A stretch of DNA of 64,000 nt from an uncultured virus (IMG/VR IMGVR_UViG_3300011842_000033) (lineage: Duplodnaviria; Heunggongvirae; Uroviricota; Caudoviricetes), in IMG/VR virus record IMGVR_UViG_3300011842_000033; one strand, 5' to 3'. Under the pieces are notes generated by a model. That model saw only the letters and a program-made list of their open reading frames with translations, had not been told where the DNA came from and made no database searches. Made by a program: the position numbers and the translations under genes. Shown piece after piece: positions 12,028-41,963 of the stretch; within the stretch, counting starts at the first letter, position 1, and the number at the start of each line of letters is the position of its first letter.

Positions 12028-13514
12028 TGTCGTCGATGAGTTTCAGCCAAATCCCTGCGGGGCTGCGGGTGCCGTTCTTCTACATCGAACTGGACAGCAG
12101 CAAGGCCAACAGCTTCAGCCAGACCATGCGGGTGCTGCTGATCGGCCTAATGGCCGCCGATGCGACTGCGGAGGCCGATGTGCCGGTCATCTGCCCCAGC
12201 GCCGAGCAGGCGCGCAGCCTGTTCGGTAGCGGCTCCATGGCCGCCGCCATGGTCGAGGCGTTCCGTGCGGGCAACCTGTTCACCGAGTTGTGGGTGGCTC
12301 CCGTAGCTGAGCCTGCTGCCGGTGTTGCGGCGGTGCGCACCATCACCTTCACCGGAGCCGCGACTGCCAGCACCGTTGCGGCGCTGTACGTTGGCGCGGC
12401 ACGCGTAGCGATCACAATCCGTGCTGCTGATACCGCCGCTGACGTCGCGGCTGCATTCGCTGCCGCCGTGAATGCAGCTCCGTCGCTGCCTGTCACTGCA
12501 ACCGCGCTGGATGGCACGCTGACGCTCACCTCGCGCTTCAAGGGTGAAGCGGGCAACGGCGTGCCGTTGGCGCTCAATCGCCGCGGCCTTGCGGGGGGCG
12601 AGTCGTTCCCGGCCGGTATCAGTGCCGGGGCGGTCACTGTCGGGGCGGCCGGCGGGGGTGCGCCTGATCTGTCCGGCGTGATCGCCAACCTGGGCGATGA
12701 GGAATACGACTTCATTGGTTGCGCCTTCAGCGATGCTGTCAGCCTCGACGCGCTGCGCGCGGAGATGGACGATACCACCGGGCGTTGGAGCTGGGCGCGG
12801 CAGGTTTACGGCCATGTCTACAGTGCCCGCCGTGGCACGCTGGCTGAGCTGCAGGCCTACGGCGCCACCCGGAACGACCAGCACTGCACCCTGTTCGGCG
12901 TCGAGCCGCGAGTAGGTGCGTGCGACCACGAGTACATCGCTGCCCGGGTTGCCCGGGAGGCCTCGCTGCTGTCCGCACATGTAGCCCGGCCCACCCAGAC
13001 CGGCGAGATCAGCGGCGTGCTGGCGCCGGCTTCGCATGAGCGCCTCACCCTGACCGAGCGGCAGACGCTGCTTTCCAGCGGTATCGCCACTCACTACAGC
13101 GGCAAGGACGGCGTGGTGCGCATCGAGCGCTCCATTACCACCTACCAGAAAAACCCCTGGGGCTCGAACGACACCAGCTATCTGGACAGCGAGAACCTGC
13201 ACCAACTGGCGTACGTCATGCGCTACCTGCGCACCGGCGTGACTACCCAGTTTGGCCGCCATGCCCTGCGCAGCGACGGCATTCGCGTGCCGGAAGGCGT
13301 TGCCACCCCGAGCATGATCAAGGCGCGCCTGGTGGCGGACTACGCCGCGATGGAGCGGGCCGGCATCGTCGAGCGTTCCGATCTTTTCGCAGAGAACCTC
13401 ATCGTCGAGATCGACGAAACCAACCCCAACCGGGTGAACGTGCTGTATCCGCCGGATCTCGTGAACCAGCTGCGCATCTTCGCGGTGCTCAACCAGTTCC
13501 GCCTGAATTACTGA
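12027..13514 (+). CDS. Mu-like tail sheath protein
   Basis: LRVPFFYIELD start; NRVNVLYPPDLVNQLRIFA end. Confidence 0.95.
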   Translation: MSSMSFSQIPAGLRVPFFYIELDSSKANSFSQTMRVLLIGLMAADATAEADVPVICPSAEQARSLFGSGSMAAAMVEAFRAGNLFTELWVAPVAEPAAGVAAVRTITFTGAATASTVAALYVGAARVAITIRAADTAADVAAAFAAAVNAAPSLPVTATALDGTLTLTSRFKGEAGNGVPLALNRRGLAGGESFPAGISAGAVTVGAAGGGAPDLSGVIANLGDEEYDFIGCAFSDAVSLDALRAEMDDTTGRWSWARQVYGHVYSARRGTLAELQAYGATRNDQHCTLFGVEPRVGACDHEYIAARVAREASLLSAHVARPTQTGEISGVLAPASHERLTLTERQTLLSSGIATHYSGKDGVVRIERSITTYQKNPWGSNDTSYLDSENLHQLAYVMRYLRTGVTTQFGRHALRSDGIRVPEGVATPSMIKARLVADYAAMERAGIVERSDLFAENLIVEIDETNPNRVNVLYPPDLVNQLRIFAVLNQFRLNY

Positions 13515-27075: not shown

Positions 27076-27228
27076 TCTATAACGGGCCAAATATCAGGGT
27101 ATAACGCGAGGTATCGTAAAGGCGCTACAATCCCCGTCCTGTATGGGCTGGGGCTTCCGGCTCAGTCTCAATCTGTCCCGCTGAATATCGTGTTAGTTCG
27201 GGACAACTGTCACCGGAAACTGTCACGC

Positions 27229-28428
27229 ATGCTAACCGAAAAGCAGATCCGTTCGCTCAAGCCAGAAGACCGCGACTACGTCATGTCCGATGGGCGCGGT
27301 GCGCGTGGCGAAGGGGTGTTGCTGCTGAAGGTTCGCGCCAATGGCACGAAGGAGTTCTACTACCAGTGGTTCGTGGCCGGCAAGAAGAAGCAACGCAAGC
27401 TCGGTGTGTGGCCAACGATGTCGCTCACCGTTGCGCGCGACAAGTGCAAAGGTGCCTCGCCGCAGAGTGAAGCGGAGGGCACGCTGCAGAACCTGATCGA
27501 TTCGTATGTGGCCAAGCTGAAAGCCGAAGGCGCGGCCTCGGCCGGCAACGTGGAATGGTCGCTCAAGCACTATGTCTCTGAGCCGTTCCCGCATCTGGTG
27601 AAGAAGCTGGCCAGCGCCATCGAGCCAGGGGATATCCGGGACATTATCTCCGCGATGATCAAGGCGAAGGTGACCACCTACTGCAACCGGGTGCGGTCGC
27701 AGCTGCATGCGGCGTTCCAGCACGGGCTCAACCAGGAATACAACCCGCGGGACTACCTCAAGTCCAAAGTGCGCTTCGGGTTGACCTATAACCCGGTGGC
27801 GAGCATCCCGGTGCAGGGCGATTGGGAGCGCCCAGGCCAGCGCGTGCTGAGCAAGGAAGAGCTGGCGGCGCTGTGGAACCTGTTGCCCGAGGAGCTGAGC
27901 CTGGTCACGGCGGAGCTGATCAAGTTCCTGATTGCCAGCGGTGGGCAGCGGCCGGAGCAGGTGGTGGCGTCAGACCGCACGATGTACCGCGACGACTACT
28001 ACATGATTCGCAGCAAGAAGGGCGTCGAAGGCGAGCGGGAGATTCATGTGGTGCCGTTCAACGGCCTGAGCCGCGCCTGCCTGGAGCGGCTGAAACCGAT
28101 CTCCGGCGATGAGGCCTTTCCGTTCATGGGCCGGTATAAGAACAACTCGATCAACGTGCAGTCCGTATCGCGGGCGGTGACGAAGCTATGCTCGCGGCAC
28201 CCGGACACGTTCAAGACGCCATTCACGCTGCGTGACCTGAGGCGAACCTGTAAGACGCTGATGGGTGTGGCGGGCATCAGCAAGGAACTGCGCGATCGCA
28301 TCCAGGGGCATGCGTTCAGCGATGTGTCGTCGAAGCACTATGACCGCTACGACTACCTGAAAGAAAAAAGCCAGGGCCTCGAGGATTGGGCTACCTGGCT
28401 TGTAGATGTGGCTGGCGTGAAGCCGTAG
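27229..28428 (+). CDS. int: Tyrosine integrase with N-terminal arm-binding domain
   Basis: MLTEKQIRSLKP, GQR, RDLRRT, GH..HYDRY; adjacent to att. Confidence 0.95.
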   Translation: MLTEKQIRSLKPEDRDYVMSDGRGARGEGVLLLKVRANGTKEFYYQWFVAGKKKQRKLGVWPTMSLTVARDKCKGASPQSEAEGTLQNLIDSYVAKLKAEGAASAGNVEWSLKHYVSEPFPHLVKKLASAIEPGDIRDIISAMIKAKVTTYCNRVRSQLHAAFQHGLNQEYNPRDYLKSKVRFGLTYNPVASIPVQGDWERPGQRVLSKEELAALWNLLPEELSLVTAELIKFLIASGGQRPEQVVASDRTMYRDDYYMIRSKKGVEGEREIHVVPFNGLSRACLERLKPISGDEAFPFMGRYKNNSINVQSVSRAVTKLCSRHPDTFKTPFTLRDLRRTCKTLMGVAGISKELRDRIQGHAFSDVSSKHYDRYDYLKEKSQGLEDWATWLVDVAGVKP

Positions 28429-31659: not shown

Positions 31660-31719
31660 TGCTGTGTCCCTCTGATGTAGAACCGCCGGCTGGTAAGGCC
31701 GGCGGGGTGTGTGCTGCGC

Positions 31720-32550: not shown

Positions 32551-32588
32551 GGTGTTGCTTCCTTGTGTGGTAAGTGGGTTTTGCTGGG

Positions 32589-32936
32589 TCAGACTTCGCG
32601 CGCTTTAACCGGCGCGTCTTCGCGGCTGAACAGCTGCGCGGTCGGGTCGGTTTGGAACAGTTCGAGGCCGTTGGCGGTGACGTACAGCGGCGTGTCGAGC
32701 GTGGTGTCTTCGCGCTTCTTGCCGCGCTTGGTGGGCTGCACGTAGTCGAGCGTGTGCGACACGGCCACCTGGTTGCTCTGGCCAATCTGCTTGAGCTTGA
32801 AGGTCAGGGTGATCTGGCCTTGCTTGCTGTGCTCGATGACGCCTGCGGCGACGTCGGACAGCGCGCGGCCTACCTGGTCGGCGAACACGCCGGCGTTGAG
32901 GCTGTTGATGAACTCGCTGGTGTCGGTTGCTTTCAT
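32589..32936 (-). CDS. YfdP-like partner of DUF2303
   Basis: PTKRGKKREDTTLDTPLYV; adjacent to DUF2303. Confidence 0.7.
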   Translation of the reverse strand: MKATDTSEFINSLNAGVFADQVGRALSDVAAGVIEHSKQGQITLTFKLKQIGQSNQVAVSHTLDYVQPTKRGKKREDTTLDTPLYVTANGLELFQTDPTAQLFSREDAPVKAREV

Positions 32937-32960
32937 TTGCTGTGTCCTTGTTGCGGTTGG

Positions 32961-33227
32961 TTACGACGCCACGCGGTCAGTGGCGGGTTGGGTGTTGCTC
33001 GGGTCGTGGGCGTCCAGCCAGGCGGCCAGATCGCGCAGGTAAACAACGGGTGGCGCCTTGCGGGTGACGTCCGTGCGGGTGTAGCGCAGGCGGACGCGGC
33101 CCTGGTGGATCAGCTTGATCAGCGACTCGACGTCGCCAATGTGCGGCAGGTACTCGGCGCGCACTTCGTCCAGCGGCAGGCAGGGCCGGTCGTAGCGGCG
33201 CAGCAATTGCTGGTAGGTGCTGCTCAC
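32961..33227 (-). CDS. Pyocin activator PrtN-family protein
   Basis: LLRRY..LPLDEVRAEY..VYLRDLAAWLD. Confidence 0.8.
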   Translation of the reverse strand: MSSTYQQLLRRYDRPCLPLDEVRAEYLPHIGDVESLIKLIHQGRVRLRYTRTDVTRKAPPVVYLRDLAAWLDAHDPSNTQPATDRVAS

Positions 33228-33905: not shown

Positions 33906-34637
33906 TCAGGCTGTGGGGCTGGTGGCCGACAAGGCGCAGCGGGCTTCCGCGATTGCGAGGTCCATCCAGGCGTCTCTGCTCAGCTCAGGAAACAGGCGCT
34001 TCTGGCGGTCCCATTCCGCGCAAATCTTGTGCAGCGCCGGTTCCAGCCTGCTTTCCTCTGGCCGAGCCGGTGCTGGCTCTGCCTGTGCATTCAGATCGCG
34101 CGCGGCAGCGTTGAATGCCGCCGCGGCAGCAGCCAGATCGCTCGGCTCGACAAGCTGTTTACGCTGAATGGCGTTCCATGCGTCGTGCGCTTCGGCCTCG
34201 GTATCAGCACCTTCAACCTTGTGGCAGTCGCGATAGCGACACTTAACACCGTGGAGAAACGCGTTACCGGTCGATGAGTAGTCGTACCCGATAGCCTCGC
34301 CGCCGCATTTGCAGCAGTTTTGCAGTGGTGCGGGTGTAGTGCGCTGCGGGATGGCCTCGGCCGTATCCGCCGTGCCGTTGGCTACCGCCTCGATCCAATC
34401 GGCCAGGTGCTGGGCGTTGGCGCCGTCGTTGCGCTGGAGGGTCATGCTGTGGCGCTGCTCGCGCATGAACAGCACGGCCAGCAGCTGATCGCCGCTGTCG
34501 CTGGTGAATGGCTCGATGCTCAGCTCGGCGCGCAGCTCGCGGGCGGGCTGGGTGAGCAGCAGGGTTTCGCTACCGGCCTGGTTGGCGAGCATGCCGAGGG
34601 CGGCTTCGCTGCCTCTGGTGAGGGAGAAGGTGCTCAT
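33906..34637 (-). CDS. Hypothetical protein with internal Lar-like zinc finger
   Basis: CCKCGG..VKCRYRDC..EAHDAWN. Confidence 0.65.
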   Translation of the reverse strand: MSTFSLTRGSEAALGMLANQAGSETLLLTQPARELRAELSIEPFTSDSGDQLLAVLFMREQRHSMTLQRNDGANAQHLADWIEAVANGTADTAEAIPQRTTPAPLQNCCKCGGEAIGYDYSSTGNAFLHGVKCRYRDCHKVEGADTEAEAHDAWNAIQRKQLVEPSDLAAAAAAFNAAARDLNAQAEPAPARPEESRLEPALHKICAEWDRQKRLFPELSRDAWMDLAIAEARCALSATSPTA

Positions 34638-34828
34638 GCTGCGCCACCGAACGGACCGAAGTCCTCGAAGGCGGGCAGGGTGTGGCGCTTGAGTTGTGCG
34701 GCGCGCAGGGTGACGTGAGCGGTCAGGCCGGTTTCTCGTTCGATGCGGCGCACGGTGAAGGGGTTGGATGCCGATGCCGGGTGCAGAAAGACCGGGCAGC
34801 GGGTGCTGCTGTGCTGTGCTGTGTCCAT
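34634..34828 (-). CDS. First gene of early left operon, hypothetical
   Basis: MDTAQHSSTRCPVFLHP; ATGA overlap with next gene. Confidence 0.65.
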   Translation of the reverse strand: MDTAQHSSTRCPVFLHPASASNPFTVRRIERETGLTAHVTLRAAQLKRHTLPAFEDFGPFGGAA

Positions 34829-34862
34829 TGTCGCGATCCCGTGGTAAGTGGGTACGCGGCAA

Positions 34863-34922
34863 TAATCCGTCAACGAATTTATCTAGTCAATACGCATAGG
34901 GATTAAAATACCAAAGCGGCTT
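34863..34922 (-). promoter_or_regulatory. PL promoter and three operators (AATnCGnnnnCGnATT)
   Basis: TTGACT-17bp-GATTAT; operators 34864-79, 34889-904, 34907-22. Confidence 0.75.
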
Positions 34923-34943
34923 TCCGCGATGAGGCGACGCCTA

Positions 34944-35384
34944 TTAGTGGCTGTCTCGAAACTCTTGGGCGAGGCGTGCAAGGTAGCGCATCAAATCTCT
35001 CTGGCGGGCTTGACCATGAGCATCTGGCCATAGAAACGCTAACAGCTGGTAGCTCTCTTCTTCGAGCTCGCCCTGGACATACACCAGCGCGGCATCTTGC
35101 CCTGGTTTTCCAGGCTGGCAGACGCGGTAATACTGCGCGCGGTCCTGTGGAAAGCGGCCGGGGGGAAGCTTTATGTGGATGTGCATCAACGAGGATTTAA
35201 GCGCTTCGGGAGGCTGCGTGTAGCAGACGTCACGCCCAAAATAATGCGGCGGGTTGGTACGGTCGGATTCTACGTACCGCTGAAAGTCAGCCCTTAATTT
35301 CTCGGCAAGGCCGGGTTAGCTGGCTTCTATCGGAGCGAACAGTTCGGAATATGTGGAGCTATTGAAGGTAACGATTACCGCCAT
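34944..35384 (-). pseudogene. YafO-family toxin with in-frame TAA at codon 23
   Basis: FGRD, HIH, LVY, PDAH..AQEFR motifs; stop at 35316-35318, frame otherwise intact. Confidence 0.75.
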
Positions 35385-35387
35385 TCG

Positions 35388-35900
35388 CTAGGCAATCTTC
35401 GCCAGATGCCTAGTGGAATGGTCTGCAAGCGCTTTCAGCCCTTCCATGTCGATGTCGCTCTCGAAGTAGTCCGGCGTTTCATGAGCTTGGAGAAGAAGAT
35501 TCTCTAGCTGAACCAGTCGGCCTCTGACCTTCGCCACTGAGCGGCGCAAGCCCATGTGCGCCTCCTCAATATCAGGCTGAACGATGGTCCCACGCAGGGC
35601 CGCCTCTAGCGCTCTCGTCATGCTGATGTGGTGTGGAAGACGCTCAAACAGCTCTGCGTCGAAGCACCCGCGCTTAAGAGTGGCCTGAATTGCTTGCGCG
35701 TAGAGTCCGTCCAGTTCATTGAACTGGTCCCGGATCTCTTCGATTATGCGGCGCTGGTCCTGTCGGTTGACTGGCTTACTCGGGCGTTCCGCATGCGACG
35801 ATGAAGAACGCAGATGCGAAGCCTGTGCAGCAACCGAATAATCTCCAACCATTGCCAGCGTGGCCATGATCAGCGATGAGGCAGCGAGATTGAGAGCCAT
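35388..35900 (-). CDS. Hypothetical protein, putative antitoxin/partner of YafO-like gene
   Basis: Stop 3 bp before toxin ATG; downstream of cI. Confidence 0.6.
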   Translation of the reverse strand: MALNLAASSLIMATLAMVGDYSVAAQASHLRSSSSHAERPSKPVNRQDQRRIIEEIRDQFNELDGLYAQAIQATLKRGCFDAELFERLPHHISMTRALEAALRGTIVQPDIEEAHMGLRRSVAKVRGRLVQLENLLLQAHETPDYFESDIDMEGLKALADHSTRHLAKIA

Positions 35901-36033
35901 ATCTGCGTCTCTTTTGGGTGCAAGCATGTTTCAAGTGGCCGGCGAGTATACGGATATAAAGACCGCGTTGCCACTCGCCAGTTCTGTATCTTTACACCTT
36001 TGGTTCGGATTCTGTCCAGTCTCTGCCCGCGGT

Positions 36034-36696
36034 CTACCGTCGTTTCCGCTTGATCCATGAACCAGTCACTACACCGCAGAAGCTCGTTTGTTCTGGCATA
36101 TGCAGGATTCGATTCGGAAATTCCGGGTTCAATGCCAGAAGGTATGTGCCGTCCTCGGTTATCTGCAAGCGCTTGAACGTTACCTGGCCATCCGGAGTGC
36201 GTACGACAACGTCATCGTTGTGCATGGGGACCAGCTCGGGCTCCACGAGAAGAATCTCCCCGGTTCTGTACTCTGGGGACATGCTCAGCCCTCGGACCTC
36301 TAGGCAGTAGGCGGAGGGGCTATGGGGGAACGGGCAGTCCAGCCAGTCATCGGCAAAGCCAGGTTCAAACAAATCTATCGCCTCGCATAAATCTCCGGCG
36401 CGCACCCATGAAATCAGAGGTACGCGTTGATGCAAGGCGGGCCCAGGTCCCAAGGTCGAGTCTAGGGTTTGCGGATCGGGCTGGCGGAGGCCGAGTACTT
36501 CAGCCATGTCCAACCCAAGGGCGCGAGTGAGGCGCTCGATGTAATTGATCTGCGGGTTCTGGAACTCACCCTTGAGGATGCGGTGCACGGTGGATTGGTT
36601 AAGGCCGGCTCTCTTGGCCAGCTCTGTCTCGCTCCAGCCCAGCTTTTCGCGCCTTGCCGCCAGCGTGGCGGCGATGTGACCGATCGAAATAGCCAT
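36034..36696 (-). CDS. cI: CI-like repressor (XRE HTH plus S24 peptidase)
   Basis: HTH SETELAKRAGLNQSTVHRI; VRAG cleavage site, GLSM, TFKRL. Confidence 0.95.
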   Translation of the reverse strand: MAISIGHIAATLAARREKLGWSETELAKRAGLNQSTVHRILKGEFQNPQINYIERLTRALGLDMAEVLGLRQPDPQTLDSTLGPGPALHQRVPLISWVRAGDLCEAIDLFEPGFADDWLDCPFPHSPSAYCLEVRGLSMSPEYRTGEILLVEPELVPMHNDDVVVRTPDGQVTFKRLQITEDGTYLLALNPEFPNRILHMPEQTSFCGVVTGSWIKRKRR

Positions 36697-36704
36697 GCCG
36701 AGAT

Positions 36705-36761
36705 TATTCCTTTGCGAATTATGCAAAGCGTATTGCGGCTGACAATTCCGATGCGTATTAT
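36705..36761 (+). promoter_or_regulatory. PR promoter and OR operators
   Basis: TTGCGG-17bp-TATTAT (36733-36761); operators 36705-20, 36719-34, 36744-59 match the PL consensus. Confidence 0.7.
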
Positions 36762-36796
36762 CTTGCTCAATGCGTAGCCGGATACATTCCTTTGTC

Positions 36797-37054
36797 ATGA
36801 CTACTCCCTCGATCACTGAAATGCTGAAAGCGCTTATCGAAGCTGGGATGACCCAGCAAGGCATCGCTGATGCTATTGGCGTTACTCAGCCGACCGTTTT
36901 CCGGGCGCTGAATGGCGCTGAGCTCCGTTACTGCATCGGTAAGGAGCTGGAAAAGCTCTATGCCGAGAAGAGCGGCGGCGCCGGCTTCGAAGCTGACCGC
37001 CGCCAGGCGGAGCGTAGGCGCGGAGAGCGGCGCCAAGGCGAACGCCGCGCCTAA
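36797..37054 (+). CDS. cro: Cro-like HTH protein with (D/E)RR-repeat tail
   Basis: MTQQGIADAIGVTQPTVFRAL; divergent from cI. Confidence 0.85.
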   Translation: MTTPSITEMLKALIEAGMTQQGIADAIGVTQPTVFRALNGAELRYCIGKELEKLYAEKSGGAGFEADRRQAERRRGERRQGERRA

Positions 37055-37066
37055 CCAGAATCACAG

Positions 37067-37371
37067 CCCGCCTTCAGGACACAGCACAGCAGCACACGTA
37101 TCAGGCGGGAGCCGGCCCGAGAGTCTTACCAACGCCATCGGGCCGGCGCCGGGCAAGCAGCCTAGAAACACAAAAGCCTGTCGCTACGGCGGCAGGCTTG
37201 TATAGAGGTCGAGAACTGGGGACCCACTTACCACAGCAAGAACCCCAGCCTCGACGGTCCGGTAACCGGTTACCAGCCGGCTACCTCAACCCGCGACCCG
37301 TGGACACAGCAGTCATGAGGGTCGCGTGCTGTAGGTGAACTGTAGGGCAACGGCCCGGCGGTTGGCTACAG
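37067..37371 (+). ncRNA. Array of hairpins displaying GGACACAGCA / CTTACCA loops
   Basis: Stems at 37067-109, 37111-147, 37174-199, 37208-255, 37292-326, 37340-371. Confidence 0.55.
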
Positions 37372-37392
37372 CGTTACAGGGGCATTAACGCT

Positions 37393-37884
37393 ATGAGCCG
37401 TAAAGACCTTCTGCCGGGCGCCGGCCCGGTGCTGACCACCCGCCAGGCGCTGTACCGCGCCACGCGGGACGCCGAGGGCGGGCAGCTTGCCGTGGCGCTG
37501 ACCATTGGCATGGACCCGGACGAGCTGAGCAAGCGCGTCAACCCTACGGGCAATCGCCCGATTCACCCTGAGTTCATCGAGGAGATCGTCGCCACGACGC
37601 GCGACCCGCGCCTGCTGGCGGCGTTGGTGCGCCCGGCCGGTGCGGTGGTGTTCGTGCCCAAGCCTGTGCGGGCAACGCCGGATGCGCTGAAGGCGCTGGG
37701 TGAGTTGCTGCAGGCCGAAGGCGAGTTCGTCGGCAGCCTGCACGACGGCGCCGCGGACAGCCACTGGGAGCACCACGAGGTGGAGGCGTTGCGCTACCAC
37801 GCGAACAAGGTGATCGGCGAGATCCTGGGGATTGTGGCCGGCGCTGAGCAGGCGATGGAAGCGGAGGCGGTGTGCCATGGATGA
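37393..37884 (+). CDS. CII-like phage regulatory protein
   Basis: Position after cro; GG..AVALTIGM..LSKRVNP HTH-like. Confidence 0.7.
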   Translation: MSRKDLLPGAGPVLTTRQALYRATRDAEGGQLAVALTIGMDPDELSKRVNPTGNRPIHPEFIEEIVATTRDPRLLAALVRPAGAVVFVPKPVRATPDALKALGELLQAEGEFVGSLHDGAADSHWEHHEVEALRYHANKVIGEILGIVAGAEQAMEAEAVCHG

Positions 37885-38098
37885 GCATCTGATCGAACGT
37901 GCCCAGCGCGAGCAGGACGAGGCGTTGCAGCGGCTCATCGACAGCCGCGTGCAGTACCAGGGCGAAAGCCTGGACGAGTGCGAAGGGTGCGGTGGCGAGA
38001 TTCCGCAGGCCCGGCGCGACGCGGTGAAGGGTTGCCGGATGTGCTTTGACTGCCAGCAGGTGATCGATAAGCGGAATGCGGGGGTGCGGCGTGGTTGA
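37877..38098 (+). CDS. TraR/DksA C4 zinc-finger protein
   Basis: CEGCGGEIPQARR..GCRMCFDCQ. Confidence 0.9.
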   Translation: MDEHLIERAQREQDEALQRLIDSRVQYQGESLDECEGCGGEIPQARRDAVKGCRMCFDCQQVIDKRNAGVRRG

Positions 38099-40793
38099 GC
38101 GCGTTCCTCTTACGCTGGCCGACCTGACCGAGCTGCTGCAGTACATCCCGGCCGATGACCGTGATACCTGGTTGCAGGTGGGCATGGGCATCAAGGCGGA
38201 GTTCGCCAGTGCTGGCTTTGACGCCTGGGATACTTGGAGTGCGACGGGCGCAGGGTATAACGCAGGCGATGCGAAGACGGTTTGGCGGAGCTTCCGCAAG
38301 GCCGGCACGGGCATGGGCACGGTGATCAAACTGGCGAAGGACAACGGCTGGCGGCCGCGCCGGGAGCCAATGACTGCCGAGGAGAAGCGCCGCCTGAATG
38401 CCGAGGCGGAAGCCCGGCGGGCGGTGCGGCAGGCTGAGATCGAAGCGGACGATGCACGGGCCTCGGTGATGCGCGAGGCGGTGGCCAGCGCGTGTGAGCT
38501 GATCTGGACGAAGCATTGCAAGCCGCAAGGCGAAAGCCCCTACCTGGAACGCAAGCTGGTGGGGGCTTTTGGCGTTGGCTATTTCCATTACACGGTTGTG
38601 CTTTCCATCGATGACCAGCGGCAGCGCTGCGATGTGTGGGTGGGCAGCGAGACCCGCGAGTTTTTCGCCAACCTGCCGAAGCCGCGACCAGATTCGATCA
38701 GCTTCCTGATGTTCAAGAAGGGAAGCATTGCCATTCCGCTGCGCGATGCGGCGGGCAAGCTCTGGAGCCTGCAGGCGATCAACGAGCAGGGCACGAAGCT
38801 GTTCCCGAAGTACGGGCGCAAGGCGGGTTGCCGGCATGTGCTGGGTGACCTGGCCGACGCGACGGTGATCGGCGAGGCCGAAGGCTATGCGACGGCTGCC
38901 AGTGTGCATATGGCGAAGGGCTGGCCGGTGGCGATGGCGCTGGACTCCGGCAACATGCCGGCGGTAGCGCGTGACCTGGTGGCGCAATGCCCGGATGCGC
39001 TGCTGGTGGTTGCCGGTGACGATGACCCGACGAAGCCGTGCAACCCGGGCCGCAAGAAGGCGGAAGCGGCGGCGGGTGAGGTGGGCGGCATTGCGGCCTT
39101 CCCGACGCAGCCGGCCGAAGGCGAGGCGGGGCAAGATTGGAACGATGTGCATGTGGCGTGGGGGCTGGATGCGGTAGCGCAGCAGCTCGACGCGGCTGTT
39201 GCCGCTGGCAAGCCTTCCCCGACCCCATCCGCTGACGAAGCCGCTGCGCCGGCCGGCTCCTCCGACAACAGGGGGCAGGGGGTGGGCTTCACCAGTGAGC
39301 AGATCCTGCGGCGGTTCGCGTTGGTGGAAGGCACCACGCACGTCTGGGACCAGGACAAGAAAGCGGTGATGAAGAAGACCGCGTTCGAGGCGCTGGTGAC
39401 GAAGCCGCTGGCGAAGGCCTGGGCGGATGACGTGGCCAAGAAGCTGATCGGCGGCGATACGGTGCGCGAGCTGGAGCAGGCGCGGCGGATGGCGGGCAAG
39501 AAGGCCACGGCGCTGGGGATGACGCCCATCGACCGGTATGTGTACATCGACGGGACGAAGGATGTGTGGGACCGCGAGAAGAAGCGGCGCATCCCGGAGG
39601 GCGCGGTGAAGATGGCGCTGGGCGATGCCTACGCGCTGTGGCTGAACTCGGCCGAGCGCCGCACGGTGGATGTGGACCACATCGTGTTCGACCCGACGAT
39701 GACAAAGGACCCGGCGGTGTACATCAACACGTTCGAGGGGCTGCCGCTGGAGCCGGTGCGCGATGACGCGGCGTGCGAGAACCTGCGCTGGCTGATCTCG
39801 TTCCTGTGCAACCACGAGGCGGAGCCGCTGGACTGGCTGGTGAAGTGGCTGGCCTTTCCGCTGCAGCACCCGGGCGCGAAGCTGGACACGGCGGTGCTGA
39901 TGCATTCGGTAATGGAGGGCTCGGGCAAGAGCCTGCTGTTCGCCGATACGTTGGGTGCGCTGTATGGGCCGTATGCGGCGACAGTTGGGCAGACGCAGCT
40001 GGAATCGAACTTCAACGCTTGGCAGAGCCGGAAGCTGTGGGCGGTGTTCGAGGAAGTGGTCAGCCGTGATCAGCGGTACAACCAGGTGGGCAAGATCAAG
40101 CATCTGATCACCGGCAAGACGGTGCGGATGGAATCGAAGTTCATCAATGGTTGGGAGGAAGCCAACCATATGAATGCGGTGTTCCTTTCGAACGAGATCC
40201 TGCCGTGGCCGATCAGTGAGTCGGACCGGCGCTTTCTGGTGATGTGGCCGTTGGAGACGCTGCCGGAGGAACGGCAGCGGGCGATCGGCGCGGAGCTGGC
40301 GAACGGTGGGGTGGCGGCACTCTACGGCTGGCTGCTGGATGTGGACCTGGGTGACTTCAACGAGCGCACGCGGCCGCCACATACCGAGGCGCGGCGCCGG
40401 CTGGTGGCGCTTTCGCGGGCCGGCTGGCAGACGTTCCTTCATCAGTGGCAGCACGGGGAGTTGGGGCAGAAGCTGTGGGGCGCGTGCCTGTCGACGGACC
40501 TTTATGCGCTGTTCCTCGAGTGGTGCCAGCGCAATCGCGAGCATGCGATGAGCCAGACGAAGTTCAGCCTGTTTATCAGCTCCGAGGTGGAGAAGACGCG
40601 GTCGATCCCCTGGACGGAGGGGGCGAACCGGCGCTTCGGGGCGTTCTTCTTTCCCAGTGACCCGGACTCTTCCCTGCCCCCATCTATGAGCGCGGCTGCG
40701 CTTGGCCAGCATGTGGCGGCCTGGCGGGCGAGGGCGAAATTGGCGGGCTGGGATGTGGACGGCTGGGAGCATTTGAAGGGGGCTGCGGCATGA
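38091..40793 (+). CDS. Primase-helicase (PriCT-2, TOPRIM, SF3 helicase)
   Basis: DDRDTWLQVGM, EGYATA, GDDD, DWND, GSGKS. Confidence 0.95.
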   Translation: MVERVPLTLADLTELLQYIPADDRDTWLQVGMGIKAEFASAGFDAWDTWSATGAGYNAGDAKTVWRSFRKAGTGMGTVIKLAKDNGWRPRREPMTAEEKRRLNAEAEARRAVRQAEIEADDARASVMREAVASACELIWTKHCKPQGESPYLERKLVGAFGVGYFHYTVVLSIDDQRQRCDVWVGSETREFFANLPKPRPDSISFLMFKKGSIAIPLRDAAGKLWSLQAINEQGTKLFPKYGRKAGCRHVLGDLADATVIGEAEGYATAASVHMAKGWPVAMALDSGNMPAVARDLVAQCPDALLVVAGDDDPTKPCNPGRKKAEAAAGEVGGIAAFPTQPAEGEAGQDWNDVHVAWGLDAVAQQLDAAVAAGKPSPTPSADEAAAPAGSSDNRGQGVGFTSEQILRRFALVEGTTHVWDQDKKAVMKKTAFEALVTKPLAKAWADDVAKKLIGGDTVRELEQARRMAGKKATALGMTPIDRYVYIDGTKDVWDREKKRRIPEGAVKMALGDAYALWLNSAERRTVDVDHIVFDPTMTKDPAVYINTFEGLPLEPVRDDAACENLRWLISFLCNHEAEPLDWLVKWLAFPLQHPGAKLDTAVLMHSVMEGSGKSLLFADTLGALYGPYAATVGQTQLESNFNAWQSRKLWAVFEEVVSRDQRYNQVGKIKHLITGKTVRMESKFINGWEEANHMNAVFLSNEILPWPISESDRRFLVMWPLETLPEERQRAIGAELANGGVAALYGWLLDVDLGDFNERTRPPHTEARRRLVALSRAGWQTFLHQWQHGELGQKLWGACLSTDLYALFLEWCQRNREHAMSQTKFSLFISSEVEKTRSIPWTEGANRRFGAFFFPSDPDSSLPPSMSAAALGQHVAAWRARAKLAGWDVDGWEHLKGAAA

Positions 40794-41122
40794 GAATGGC
40801 GAAAAGTGTGTTGGGTGTGTTGGGTTGTGTTGGGTTTGGTTTGCGCACCCGGCACAGCGCGAGGCCAGCAACGGCGGGGCTTTGCGCCGGCTGTGCGGGG
40901 TGTGTTGGGTTTTATGTCGCGCGCGCGCGTGCGTGTGTTTTGTTGCAGCCTCTGAACGGGGCTGATGCGGAAGGAAAAAATTGCTACGCGAGGACCGAAA
41001 AACCCAACAAACCCAACACACCTAACACAGTTGCTTTGAAGGCTTTGATTTATAAGGTTTTTAAGTGTGTTGGGTTTGTGTTGGGTTGCGGGTTTTGTGT
41101 CGGGTTGGGGGGCAGAGCATGA
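40790..41122 (+). CDS. Small ORF running through the iteron array
   Basis: ATGA overlaps at both ends; homolog at 1587-1928. Confidence 0.4.
   Translation: MRMAKSVLGVLGCVGFGLRTRHSARPATAGLCAGCAGCVGFYVARARACVLLQPLNGADAEGKNCYARTEKPNKPNTPNTVALKALIYKVFKCVGFVLGCGFCVGLGGRA
40805..41108. repeat. Putative replication origin iteron array (TGTGTYGGGT)
   Basis: Same arrangement as 1600-1900. Confidence 0.7.
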
Positions 41123-41706
41123 TCGAGGCCATGGAGGTGCTGTTGCAGGCGTGGGGCCGTGAGGTTGTGAACCCCGCTCTGGATGTGGCCATCGCCTCGC
41201 CGCTGGGGCGGATGGGTGACGATGCGCCGGGCGGTGTGGGCGGGCATCGCTGCCTGTCGCTGGTGGAGTGCGCGGTGGCGATCAGCCGGGCGAGCCAGGC
41301 CGTGAGCATGGCGCTGGATGGTATGGCGAAGGATGCGCCGCTTGGCCTCGGATCGCGTGGCCGTGTGCTGCAGCGGCTGGCGCATGTGCGCTACTGCCAG
41401 GGGCCGGAGGCGGTCGCCGTGGCGGCGCAGTGTGCGCGGCTGGGTATCTCGATGCGGACGTATCGTGCGCAGGTGGACGAGCTGCATGCCGAGCTGCGGG
41501 CGGAGTGGCCGGTGGCACTTGCGCGGCTGCAAGCGGCGGAGCGGGGCACGGATGCGCATGCGGCTGCGGTGAAGCGTGCGCGTGCGGCGCGGGACGTAGC
41601 GCGGGAGAACGCACGGGCTGAGCGCAAGCGGGTGGCTGAGCGCAAGGCTGCTGCGCGGGCGGTGAAGGCGGCAGCGGAGTTGCGGAAAGTCGGCGCCGCT
41701 GGATGA
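41119..41706 (+). CDS. Putative late-gene regulator
   Basis: MIEAMEVLLQAWG homologous to 1921-2412; HTH-like LGISMRTY. Confidence 0.55.
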   Translation: MIEAMEVLLQAWGREVVNPALDVAIASPLGRMGDDAPGGVGGHRCLSLVECAVAISRASQAVSMALDGMAKDAPLGLGSRGRVLQRLAHVRYCQGPEAVAVAAQCARLGISMRTYRAQVDELHAELRAEWPVALARLQAAERGTDAHAAAVKRARAARDVARENARAERKRVAERKAAARAVKAAAELRKVGAAG

Positions 41707-41739
41707 CCGTTCGTCGGGTTGGTTTGGCGCGAACAGAGT

Positions 41740-41824
41740 TCAACCGTGCTCAAGTGTGCTCAACCGTGTTGAACAGCGCCGCGAAAAACGGGCGGTTGCG
41801 GGCGTTGCATGTCGGCTGTAGAAA
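41740..41824 (+). promoter_or_regulatory. Putative late promoter with three phased repeats
   Basis: TCAA(C/G) at 41740, 41750, 41760; TTGCGG-17bp-TAGAAA. Confidence 0.5.
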
Positions 41825-41830
41825 GTGCCC

Positions 41831-41963
41831 ATGGTTGTAGAGCTGCGCCCGCAGCGATAACCGCCGAGCGACGTGCTGTGTCGCGGCCTGTTCCCCGGCA
41901 GGCCAGCCCTCGCAAGAGGGCACCCATTCCAAGGCTCACCCCAAACGGTGGGCCTTTTTCATT
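41831..41963 (+). ncRNA. Candidate structured late-leader small RNA
   Basis: Hairpin loops GTGCTGT and TTCCCC, extra GCAA hairpin, terminator 41931-41959. Confidence 0.5.

Follow-up and report, generated by a model that had tools for sequence, protein, structure and literature searches.

A conserved multi-hairpin leader between cro and cII that looks like an undescribed RNA control system for lysis-lysogeny genes

The C4 antisense RNA of phages P1 and P7 has a and b target sites, and the CI RNA of P4 has seqA and seqC. In lambda, the PR'-tR' late leader (6S RNA) is a promoter-proximal, terminated RNA located upstream of the lysis genes, and it has no known trans target, while cII is overlapped at its 3' end by the cis-antisense RNA OOP. 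In Pseudomonas phages neither N homologues nor nut sites can be recognised, and the gating of cII, replication and delayed-early genes in lambdoid phages outside the coliphages is largely obscure. The genome paper on vB_PaeP_YA3 reports that no N homologue was found. In HK022, putL lies just 3' of PL and putR ~270 nt 3' of PR, and both act as folded nascent RNA (PMC9378689).

The hairpin array and its conservation

The region between a cro-like gene and cII was examined in a 64,000-nucleotide sequence of an uncultured virus (IMG/VR record IMGVR_UViG_3300011842_000033), the whole of which is referred to here as the window. The host context is that of a Stutzerimonas prophage. A preliminary description of this DNA had proposed an array of hairpins with a cI-type repressor gene, a cro-like gene and cII as neighbours, and these three genes were identified. 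The loops of the array display two motifs, M1 with the core C-U-N-A-C-C (three copies) and M2, GACACAGCA (two copies), the latter having the form of a Shine-Dalgarno (SD) sequence plus spacer.

36034–36690, minus strand: S24/HTH repressor gene
36800–37054, plus strand: cro-like HTH gene, upstream neighbour of the array
37067–37372, plus strand: array of seven to eight hairpins, forming the leader between the cro-like gene and cII
37067–37109, plus strand: H1, 7-bp stem CCCGCCT/AGGCGGG, 29-nt loop displaying M2 (GGACACAGCACAGCAGCAC)
37111–37147, plus strand: H2, 10-bp stem, loop GAGTCTTACCAACGCCA displaying M1 (GAGTCTTACCAAC)
37151–37163, plus strand: small variable hairpin, then a conserved A-rich linker (AGAAACACAAAA), from the fold and the homologues
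37174–37199, plus strand: H3, 11 pairs including one U.G, loop UACG
37216–37248, plus strand: H4, inner 6-bp stem within an outer 6-bp stem at 37208–37255, loop ACCCACTTACCACAGCAAGAA displaying M1 (ACCCACTTACCACAG)
37266–37280, plus strand: H5, outer stem extending to 37261–37285, GGUAaCCGG/CCGGcUACC, loop UUACCAG, a short form of M1 (UACCA)
37292–37326, plus strand: H6, 8-bp stem, loop GTGGACACAGCAGTCATGA displaying M2 (GGACACAGCA)
37328–37334 with 37366–37372, plus strand: S7, long-range helix GCUGUAG/CUACAGC enclosing a small hairpin at 37345–37356
37370–37392, plus strand: cII start hairpin, 7-bp AGCGUUA/UAACGCU with the cII SD AGGGG in the loop and the AUG at 37393
37393–37884, plus strand: cII (Pfam Phage_CP76, E 2e-11)

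All of the hairpins described previously were recovered in their proposed places when checked against the sequence, as was the TGCTGT downstream of H6 (37327–37332); S7 and the cII start hairpin were not among them and are added here. No hairpin is conserved more widely than H6, which P. aeruginosa-type phages have as well. In three lineages the loop of H1 carries M1 (ACACTYACCAC) in place of M2. The cII start hairpin shares 3 nt with the 3' arm of S7, and its P. aeruginosa-type counterpart, CCGUAAA-AGGAGCA-UUUACGG, occupies the same position. As the 5' arm of S7 (GCUGU) is complementary to M2 in the loop of H6, an H-type pseudoknot between H6 and S7 is geometrically possible; P. aeruginosa-type arrays do not have this alternative GCUGU pairing in cis. 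The array does not encode a conserved protein; the only ORF in it has 46 aa and a TTG start. A leader peptide in H6 (7 codons) was also rejected, as its AUG is missing from most homologues.

The plus strand of 37050–37400 gave a minimum free energy of -154.9 kcal/mol (z -4.76), and none of 100 shuffled sequences folded as well. The structure was then compared across 22 homologues sharing 44–78% identity (alignment A1). As RNAalifold on the raw MAFFT alignment returned a poor consensus of 35 pairs, a structure drawn by hand from the window's own fold was used instead and then tested. In this structure 82.3% of cells were paired, compared with 32–44% when the partners were slid by 1–3 columns, and 30 of the 67 stem pairs changed on both sides, a number reached in none of 500 shuffles (mean 19.7). 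Cells with a change on both sides numbered 97, against 38.4 in the shuffles. Changes on both sides were found in H1 (3/7 pairs), H2 (4/10, e.g. GCCGGCCCGA to GCCGGTACCGG), H3 (6/11, with a conserved non-Watson-Crick position in mid-stem), H4 (8/12, outer and inner stems together) and H5 (4/8). S7 had none; its arms are nearly invariant, GCTGT is invariant, and U-A is replaced by U.G in nine sequences and A-U by G.U in seven.

Among 76 unique leaders, the predicted probability of being unpaired was 0.77 for M1 (171 sites) and 0.71 for M2 (202 sites), compared with 0.39 for the leaders overall. As the unrelated stems covary while the loops are conserved, selection acts on the displayed single-stranded sequence, which bears out the suggestion made when the repeated loops were first noticed. 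The array was confirmed as a real, conserved, multi-hairpin leader RNA.

The strand was less readily assigned. The minus strand of the same interval folds even better (-174.7, z -5.99), hence folding energy cannot name the functional strand, and a call from wobble pairs was abandoned because G.U and A.C counts pointed in no consistent direction: 66 G.U versus 60 A.C cells in the alignment, and 17 G.U versus 40 A.C single mismatches in Watson-Crick-only folds read on the plus strand. Only S7 clearly favours the plus strand (16 G.U cells). It is most improbable that a leftward RNA, either an sRNA or an establishment transcript from near the cII start, is the functional product. Such an RNA would end at a minus-strand terminator formed by H3, and its loops UGCUGUGUC and UGGUAAGUG would act in trans on left-operon mRNA by pairing with M2 and M1, supplying a complement for M1 that is otherwise missing. 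The better minus-strand fold and the 40 A.C mismatches, which are G.U on the minus strand, speak for it, and the partly conserved U-rich tract that follows H3 on the minus strand makes H3 a possible leftward terminator. However, no promoter-like minus-strand site was found in 37200–37500, a terminator scan called H3 on neither strand, and the 16 G.U cells of S7 would become A.C. The U.G pair of H3 in the window is also a plus-strand wobble, and its UACG loop belongs to the UNCG tetraloop class only when read on the plus strand.

The array precedes cII in 76/76 unique leaders from viral contigs and from genomes of Stutzerimonas, Pseudomonas, Halopseudomonas and Denitrificimonas; it measures 160–400 nt with 4–10 hairpins. 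None of the deposited phage genomes that were checked, namely PG1, pAN and Turba, has it annotated, and no description of it was found in literature on nut, put or antitermination in Pseudomonas phages. The Rfam scan returned neither C4 nor c4-a1b1 nor any other family, with no matches in the whole window at the gathering score (Rfam 15) and, in a cmscan of 34000–41000 with E up to 10, five weak matches of which none lay in 37055–37392. A widespread RNA strongly supported by covariation is thus absent from Rfam.

Homology between the window and PG1 and six genomic relatives begins at window positions 37021–37097, and cro and cI differ. The same pattern is seen in P. aeruginosa phages, and by these boundaries the array and cII travel together as one module.

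36995–37054, plus strand: 3'-terminal part of the cro-like ORF with four (D/E)RR repeats (DRRQAERRRGERRQGERRA) in its translation, found in 9/27 phages

This tail, in which 9 of 18 residues are Arg, is the sole strongly Arg-rich segment and occurs only at the end of the cro-like ORF. As homology between phages starts there despite different cro and cI genes, it belongs to the array/cII module. TRF made no call for its 15-nt periodicity.

A metatranscriptome contig of depth 32 covers 36751–37574, next to a cI contig of depth 212; it is strandless and its ends are not defined. Coverage ends ~180 nt into cII, which is weakly consistent with a transcript that starts at PR, crosses the array and ends soon after entering cII. 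Three raw-read runs with the same species label contained no reads from this region and were hence uninformative.

Motif copies in the left operon and the late-leader complement

M1 and M2 were found to recur, always in sense, where the PL transcript begins and in each sizeable intergenic gap of the left operon. These sites, which had gone unnoticed in the preliminary description, form a phage-wide set consisting of the PL 5' end and the translation starts of the left operon.

34890–34862, minus strand: PL-like promoter TTGACT-17-GATTAT (promoter scan)
34803–34858, minus strand: PL 5' site, the left-hand counterpart of the array, hairpin CGCGUA-CCCACUUACCAC-GGGAUCGCG with M1 in the loop, an AUG, then M2 (GGACACAGCACAGCACAGCAGCAC)
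32936–32946, minus strand: M2 serving as SD and spacer, immediately 5' of the AUG of a yfdP-like gene
32551–32578, minus strand: M1 (CCCACUUACCACA) immediately 5' of the SD of a yfdQ-like gene
31660–31710, minus strand: hairpin CCGCCGGC-CUUACCA-GCCGGCGG with M1 in the loop, then M2 (GGGACACAGCA), which abuts the AUG of a membrane-protein gene

At the PL 5' site, M2 covers the start of a conserved 64-aa gene and is kept at the RNA level in two different reading frames. The genes at the motif-bearing gaps have their own ribosome-binding sites. Several of the left copies are not within hairpins.

The motifs exist in phage-specific forms. M1 occurs as CCCACTTACCA, CCCACTCACCA or CCACCTACCAC in Stutzerimonas-type phages and as CTCTCACC, CTCTGACC or CCTCTACAC in P. 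aeruginosa-type phages, M2 is either GACACAGCA or GACACAGCC, and within each phage the copies change in concert. When the M1 8-mer of each of 12 phages (a 7-mer in L163) was searched for in its own sequence, 19 copies were found on the plus strand in the array and 21 on the minus strand in the left arm, with none of the 40 in antisense orientation. Exact loop-motif repeats of at least 11 nt followed the same sense-only pattern in most of 27 phages. Through these sense-only, concerted copies, a phage-wide RNA regulon can be put to a direct test.

Readings at the level of DNA (CII sites or stoperator-like repressor sites) were rejected, as they explain neither the compensatory changes in the stems nor the motif copies squeezed in between the stop codon of one gene and the AUG of the following one. 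Recognition by RsmA/CsrA or Hfq/Crc, or complementarity to 16S rRNA or tRNA, judged on consensus motifs, was likewise set aside because it leaves the phage-specific variants unexplained.

A complement of M2 was found in the window in a predicted RNA upstream of the holin gene.

41831–41959, plus strand: late-leader RNA of ~129 nt, folding into four hairpins, intrinsic terminator at 41931–41956
41873–41882, plus strand: loop of late-leader hairpin 2, GUGCUGUGUC, the complement of M2

The late-leader RNA is predicted to be ~120–130 nt and terminated across the phages. Counting exact or near-exact complementarity, the M2 complement was present in the late leader of 32 of the 36 phages examined (15/15 Stutzerimonas-type and 17/17 P. 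aeruginosa-type), where it lies in or beside a hairpin loop of the compact, terminated RNA. The complementarity is only 9–10 nt in the window itself; in the P. aeruginosa type it spans the H6 loop, with 8 plus 6–10 pairs around one mismatch. The duplex has an invariant 9-nt core and a tenth position without covariation, and L124, L136 and L137 have sites of the form ...GCAC but a late leader of the form ...UUGC. Folding the whole late leader against the array gave duplexes with z from -3.0 to 0, values that are meaningless for such G+C-rich RNAs.

Three phages carrying the GACACAGCC variant (L144, L146 and L147), two of them complete proviruses, have no M2 complement anywhere in their records yet keep the array and the left copies, and in L173 no complement was found within 8 kb. 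M2 is thus conserved without a late-leader partner, and antisense pairing cannot be the whole story. Nor was a complement found for M1, either on any strand of the whole PG1 genome, except opposite its own sense copies, or as a conserved sequence in a scan of the Turba genome. The late leader was rejected as the partner of M1, as phages that differ in their M1 variant have the same GGU..GAG segment at its 5' side. The idea put forward in the preliminary description, that the array is an antisense target of, or a sponge for, the late-leader RNA, therefore has real support for M2, given the conserved complement in a hairpin loop, and fails to account for the part of the system represented by M1.

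As with P1 C4 and P4 CI, a short structured phage RNA has a loop complementary to sites in early mRNA that include ribosome-binding regions, the target leader lies upstream of an operon with a P4-alpha-like primase, and there are several target copies per genome. However, a small structured RNA with a target-complementary loop was found for M2 only (32/36 phages), so that one of two motifs is complemented, some relatives are without a complement, and Rfam gave no C4 or c4-a1b1 match. The antisense RNA would also differ in being the terminated leader of the late operon rather than a processed piece of the target operon. The arrangement is like that of lambda in combining a terminated late leader before the lysis genes with a proposed antisense layer acting on cII, but the pairing would be in trans with the 5' leader of cII and not, like that of OOP, in cis at its 3' end. 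A trans function, one never assigned to lambda 6S RNA, is thereby suggested as possible for the late-leader RNA.

Possible roles of the array

The array looks like an undescribed RNA control system for lysis-lysogeny genes. The proposal that it is a target, attenuator or sponge gating cII and replication agrees with the structure and with the M2 complement, and not with the missing M1 complement or the lack of an Rfam C4 match. The reading we favour, tentatively and short of thinking it probable, is that the cII/replication leader holds a multivalent RNA operator, the array, which is read in trans. It builds on what the sequences show, namely the structure and its covariation, the display of the motifs, their distribution in sense only, the variation of their copies in concert, and the complementarity kept across the phages. 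In the rightward early transcript from PR, the array would form an untranslated leader ahead of the cII-traR-primase portion. Its stems would serve solely to hold M1 and M2 single-stranded, and together with the PL and left-operon sites it would make up one post-transcriptional regulon of delayed-early genes, read by phage-specific partners acting in trans. The partner of M2 would be the late-leader RNA, which is short and terminated and, like 6S, comes from the late promoter. Loop-loop pairing with M2 would occlude the start sites in the left operon. In the array it would rearrange the H6/S7/start-site region or cause transcription to end prematurely, so that cII and the replication genes are expressed less. 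This would constitute an RNA layer of immunity or of lytic commitment, of the P1 C4 or P4 CI kind. We infer that the pairing occurs, as well as its direction (target or sponge) and its effect on cII. M1 would be read by a second phage-specific factor, most likely a protein.

The main rival of the trans-read operator, possible though somewhat doubtful, is a nut- or put-like site for processive antitermination in which the M1 hairpins are boxB-like and M2 is an accessory box. A phage factor would be loaded onto RNA polymerase leaving PL and PR, or the RNA would act on it directly, and downstream terminators would be read through into cII, replication and later genes. As for lambdoid nut sites, the motif sites lie downstream of both early promoters on the sense strand, and their positions, at the PL start and ~300 nt after PR, past cro, match those of lambda nutL/nutR and HK022 putL/putR. 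The elements can be likened to put, by description, as cis-acting RNA elements of lambdoid early operons in agreeing positions, but put has ~70 nt and two stems (PMC9378689) and binds RNA polymerase with no help from a phage protein, whereas the array has 7–8 hairpins in the window and conserves its loops, not its stems. The phi21 nut site is similar in part, as its hairpin too joins a variable stem to a conserved, phage-specific loop. Its boxB hexaloop, CUAACC (PMC12550061), agrees with the M1 core C-U-N-A-C-C, and exact CUAACC occurs in some P. aeruginosa-type arrays. Concerted phage-specific variants are what N/boxB specificity predicts, terminator-like sites lie downstream (40918–40937 and 41931–41956), the Arg-rich (D/E)RR tail sits at the module border in 9/27 phages, and the first PL gene, at the position of N, encodes a small protein of low predicted order. 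Against this, a boxA consensus with at most one mismatch gave 16 matches in the window, compared with 24 expected, and none in the array or PL site (37055–37392 and 34800–34860). No N-like arginine-rich protein is common to all of the phages, the tail being absent in 18/27 and the first PL protein not Arg-rich, and instead of hexaloops there are larger loops, of 7–21 nt in Stutzerimonas-type phages and of 8 nt in P. aeruginosa-type ones. The right-hand site has three to six hairpins where nut has one. Antitermination predicts neither the extra copies, in the form of SD plus spacer, before three to five starts deep in the left operon nor the conserved M2 complement in the late leader.

Another reading, which we consider unlikely, is that M2/M1 is a phage-specific start cassette for a phage-encoded regulator or for ribosome standby. 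The five array copies, which have no start codon, would bring 30S subunits or the regulator to the structured leader of cII, or else titrate the regulator, and cII output would thereby follow translation of the left operon. The distance from the end of M2 to the AUG is 0–3 nt at the yfdP-like gene, the yfdQ-like gene (P. aeruginosa type) and the membrane-protein gene, M2 overlaps the first PL start, and every left-operon gap of at least 24 nt in the window bears M1 and/or M2 while overlapping (coupled) genes bear none. The cII SD itself lies in a hairpin loop beside S7, whose arms are invariant and whose 5' arm can alternatively pair with M2. However, that pairing is absent from P. aeruginosa-type arrays, no conserved leader peptide follows the loop copies in the homologues, no such regulator was found, and recognition by the host ribosome would not produce variants specific to each phage. 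It is very unlikely that the role is passive or Rho-related, with the array being a structured spacer against Rho or RNases or a rut-like attenuator of the tR1 type and the motifs being common by descent only. The array has the same location as lambda tR1, its loops are C/A-rich and G-poor, and RNA coverage in the one metatranscriptome contig ends early in cII. A rut site is a C-rich, G-poor, weakly structured stretch of ~80 nt, but here only the loops are C/A-rich, the array is highly structured and G+C-rich, and M2 has no pyrimidine-C dimers. Concerted phage-specific variation over 5–10 dispersed copies, and fixed loops on freely covarying stems, demand sequence-specific recognition.

An extension of the trans-read operator, which we regard as rather doubtful, is that temperate phages of the Pseudomonadaceae address their RNAs in a code of two words, M1 and M2, for which each phage has its own pair of reading factors. 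The words would stand in the loops of the cII-leader hairpins, in the opening nucleotides of the PL RNA and at each early-left gene that is translated independently, and the readers would be the 6S-like late-leader RNA, as a trans antisense, and an M1-binding protein with a loop specificity like that of phi21 N. The array would then be a multivalent hub that turns the ratio of the two factors into a decision on cII and replication. Such a code, if real, would represent a new class of post-transcriptional immunity or commitment circuit in phages.

Several phage proteins were considered as the specificity factor. The cro tail was rejected because it is missing in 18/27 phages, and cI and cro because PG1 and the window have common motifs but different cI and cro. 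The first PL gene product was rejected as an N analogue, having no Pfam family, no informative Atlas match and an AlphaFold mean pLDDT of 62. In a class-association screen of the P. aeruginosa-type proteins, in which the lineages are too few and too related to carry a conclusion, cI and the yfdP-like and yfdQ-like proteins ranked highest.

Structure and conservation of the cro-cII leader

The early region of the window is lambdoid in style and includes the following genes:

36034-36690, minus strand: S24/HTH repressor
36800-37054, plus strand: cro-like HTH gene (PHROG 6831, E 1.4e-17)
37393-37884, plus strand: cII (Pfam Phage_CP76, E 2e-11; PHROG 101)
early region: TraR/DksA zinc-finger gene
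early region: primase/helicase of 905 aa with PriCT-2, Toprim and DUF5906 domains

The 338-nt gap between the cro-like gene and cII holds the array, a multi-hairpin leader RNA, and all six hairpins (H1 to H6) and the TGCTGT at 37327 were found where the preliminary description had placed them. H4 has an additional outer stem, and H5 is longer than previously described, with a conserved internal mismatch. The plus strand of 37050-37400 folds at -154.9 kcal/mol (z -4.76), a value reached by none of 100 shuffles. The minus strand folds better still (z -5.99), and folding energy alone therefore cannot assign the strand.

Homologues were drawn from 6 of 67 genomes of the genus, 11 genome contigs and 77 viral contigs. 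The 94 upstream stretches (80 unique) yielded 76 leaders in 37 clusters at 92% identity, after four with a misplaced match were left out. An alignment of 22 cluster representatives, 44-78% identical to the window, was examined against the structure drawn from the window's own fold. Covariation was evident, as 30 of 67 pairs had changed on both sides (shuffled mean 19.7; 30 reached in 0 of 500 shuffles), with 97 double-sided cells against 38.4 in the shuffles. Paired cells made up 82.3%, compared with 32-44% after partners were slid by 1-3 columns, a control that somewhat flatters the structure, whose source was itself among the aligned sequences. That bias does not bear on the many double changes, for example CTGGGG/CCCCAG to CAAGGC/GCCTTG in H4.

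The loops carry two motifs, M1 (CUYACCA in H2 and H4, UACCA in H5) and M2 (GACACAGCA in H1 and H6). Both were found by inspection in all 76 leaders, six of which carry a CUCUACAC variant, in line with the earlier proposal of conserved, single-stranded loops, and the predicted unpaired probabilities are 0.77 for M1 and 0.71 for M2 (overall 0.39). The array very probably represents a real family of conserved, structured cis-regulatory leader RNAs, one that is absent from Rfam.

The 3' part of the array is closed by the long-range helix S7 (GCUGUAG/CUACAGC; 37328-37334 with 37366-37372), which shows no covariation in the alignment and instead includes 16 U.G or G.U cells. The cII Shine-Dalgarno (SD) sequence is presented in the loop of a 7-bp hairpin that overlaps the S7 3' arm and is immediately followed by the AUG, and an equivalent hairpin is found in P. 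aeruginosa-type leaders. The GCUGU of the S7 5' arm is invariant and could instead base-pair with M2 in the H6 loop; a classical H-type pseudoknot competing with S7 would then be possible, with loops of 5 and 8 nt and a junction of 0-1 nt predicted from the sequence.

The array and cII form one module. Stutzerimonas phage PG1, the closest deposited phage, shares 96% identity from window position 37037 rightwards, but its cro and repressor differ from those of the window. In PG1 and six genomic relatives, homology starts at window 37021-37097, the extreme end of the cro ORF, and in the P. aeruginosa phages Turba, Lodos, Presto, Meadow and LPPA56 it likewise starts at the first hairpin. Turba has no annotation in the 163-nt gap that separates cII from the cro-like gene, which is labelled antirepressor there. 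The P. aeruginosa-type cII is 53-55% identical, and its leaders, some shorter and some longer, contain 2-6 M1 hairpins. They follow the same grammar: 8-nt loops of CUCU-N-ACC, an H6-like hairpin with CACAGCAC, an S7-like helix and the SD-in-loop hairpin.

The cro-like ORF ends (36995-37054, plus strand) in four (D/E)RR repeats of five residues each, with a 15-nt DNA periodicity for which TRF made no tandem-repeat call. This tail is the most Arg-rich segment of the early region, and its coding sequence lies inside the array module. It was present in 9 of 27 phages, solely at the end of the cro-like ORF, with no occurrence in another frame or place within 9 kb either side. In other phages, a similar tail is joined to unrelated HTH domains as part of the array/cII module. 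The tail may serve to bind RNA, or it may simply be a by-product of the repeated DNA.

In a marine metatranscriptome assembly, one contig spans 36751-37574 at a depth of 32, and the contig beside it, which covers the repressor gene, has a depth of 212; this inequality argues for RNA over contaminating DNA. The first contig fits a transcript from the rightward early promoter PR through the array, stopping ~180 nt into cII, though neither the strand nor the true ends of an RNA can be read from contigs. In three raw-read runs no read fell on the stretch, which counts neither for nor against transcription.

Motif copies in the leftward operon

The array loops display two recognition sequences common to the leftward early operon, where exact copies lie on the minus strand in both the window and PG1. 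These occupy homologous places between phages, listed here after the promoter of that operon:

34890-34862: leftward early promoter PL (TTGACT-17-GATTAT), with GCGTATTG words also found between cI and cro
start of the PL transcript: M1-loop hairpin, then M2 overlapping the start of a conserved gene of 64-69 aa (phrog_13491)
directly before the AUG of a yfdP-like gene: M2 as SD and spacer
just upstream of the SD of a yfdQ-like gene: M1
before a membrane-protein gene: M1 hairpin and M2
in some phages: one further motif site

In the window, every gap of at least 24 nt in the left operon contains a motif and overlapping genes have none. When 8 kb of flank from 27 phages was scanned for exact loop-motif repeats of at least 11 nt, most had 3-6 on the left-arm minus strand (one weak match only in locus L173) and none were found on the plus strand of that arm. 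The phage's own M1 word (8 nt; 7 nt in L163) gave 19 matches on the array plus strand and 21 on the left-arm minus strand in 12 phages, with 0 of 40 antisense. M2 is conserved as RNA and not as peptide, being read at the first PL gene as MDTAQH in one lineage and, with a two-base shift, as MQTQPS in another.

All copies within a phage share one variant, which differs between phages. M1 is CCCACTTACCA, CCCACTCACCA or CCACCTACCAC in Stutzerimonas-type phages and CTCTCACC, CTCTGACC, CCTCTAC(A/C)C or CTCTAACC in P. aeruginosa-type phages, and M2 is GACACAGCA or GACACAGCC. As the flanks of the copies differ, selection has acted on the core rather than by block copying, and this concerted variation calls for a trans-acting, phage-specific partner. 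The repressor and the HTH part of cro were ruled out as that partner, since the motifs are common to PG1 and the window and those genes are not.

The product of the first PL gene (34634-34828, minus strand) has 64 aa and is shared by Stutzerimonas and P. aeruginosa phages; its conserved features are RC(P/Q)V(Y/F)LHPAAA and, at the C-terminus, FGPFGG/GPWGG-AA. It matched no known family, and its AlphaFold model is of low confidence (mean pLDDT 62).

The late leader and possible readers of the array

The late leader, a compact RNA of ~117-132 nt with four hairpins, precedes the holin gene; its promoter has a TA(C/G)AAA -10 element, and it ends as follows:

41931-41956: intrinsic terminator of the late leader

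The suggested link between this RNA and the array is supported for M2, whose complement (G)UGCUGUGUC lies in late-leader hairpin 2, but not for M1, which has no complement there. (G)UGCUGUGUC was found in 15 of 15 Stutzerimonas-type phages (the window, its second prophage at 2577, PG1 and 12 more), which have two leader types with differing flanks. All 17 P. aeruginosa-type phages carry AUGCACGUGCUGUGC (GAGCACGUGCUGUGCG in L153) at the same place, and its complement fits the H6 loop and 3' arm (CACAGCAC-A-UGCAUC...) with 8 plus 6 to 10 pairs and one A.C mismatch. In nine folded leaders, the 9-nt core had a predicted unpaired probability of 0.41-0.66, compared with 0.37-0.46 for whole leaders.

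Simple antisense pairing is counted against by the lack of covariation at the position adjoining the M2/anti-M2 core, and by L144, L146 and L147 (GACACAGCC variant), which have four or five copies each, all sense. No M2 complement was found in these three records (two complete proviruses and one 67%-complete fragment), or within 8 kb in L173. An M1 complement was absent from all transcript-sense strands of the complete PG1 genome, and no conserved one was found in a Turba scan. The late leader was rejected as the M1 reader because its 5' GGU..GAG segment is identical across phages with different M1 variants.

Tentatively, the array may be a multivalent operator, in which late-leader RNA would read M2 and a second factor would read M1, lowering expression of cII, of the replication genes and from the left-operon start sites. 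A nut/put-like antitermination site is a somewhat weaker possibility. The core of M1, C-U-N-A-C-C, is the same as the CUAACC hexaloop that N peptide binds in phi21 boxB (PMC12550061), and the PL-start and post-cro positions mirror nutL/nutR and HK022 putL/putR (PMC9378689); however, there is no boxA and no N-like protein common to all phages. With M2 standing as SD and spacer at the yfdP-like gene, a translation-start mimic or a regulator sponge was also considered, and is unlikely. Passive structure or Rho attenuation, set beside the double-sided changes and conserved loops, is very unlikely, and a functional leftward transcript, despite the better minus-strand fold, is more improbable still.

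Neighbouring features

Across Stutzerimonas and P. aeruginosa phages, the late leader (41831-41959, plus strand) is conserved as a terminated transcription unit of ~120-130 nt. Its promoter is preceded by repeated boxes, GTGCTCAA and TTCAACCGTG in the window (41730-41790) and AGATAACCGG in the other leader type, putative sites that could bind the PrtN-like activator encoded at 32961-33227 (minus strand). Directly upstream of the leader, 41065-41706 (plus strand) encodes a 213-aa protein (phrog_4300) ending in a Lys/Arg-rich helical tail (RAERKRVAERKAAARAVK), a candidate late regulator that is absent from Turba, where a leftward gene is found instead. In the L144 group, the usual late leader is replaced by a region (L144 locus coordinates 12650-12800) in which CCCTAGACA boxes recur in either orientation ahead of a 145-aa gene, which looks like a different late-control system; the array is still kept.

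The window contains two PG1-like prophages in tandem (160-26866 and 27190-64000). Late genes of the first (holin, terminase, portal, capsid, contractile tail and lysis) extend to ~26.9 kb, followed by an integrase gene (27190-28428) and the complete early region and late genes of the second. Each has its own late leader (2,430-2,700 and 41,831-41,959), of two different types. Between the repressor gene and PL, the position of lambda rex-type morons, are a YafO-toxin-like ORF (34944-35189, minus strand; Pfam PF13957, E 3e-13) and a 179-aa ORF (35388-35927, minus strand). Between the primase gene and the next gene (40804-41087), ~8 direct and inverted copies of GTGTTGGGTT(T) lie beside a (CG)6-(TG)n run (40918-40937), and look like replication-origin iterons for a P4-alpha-like primase/helicase.
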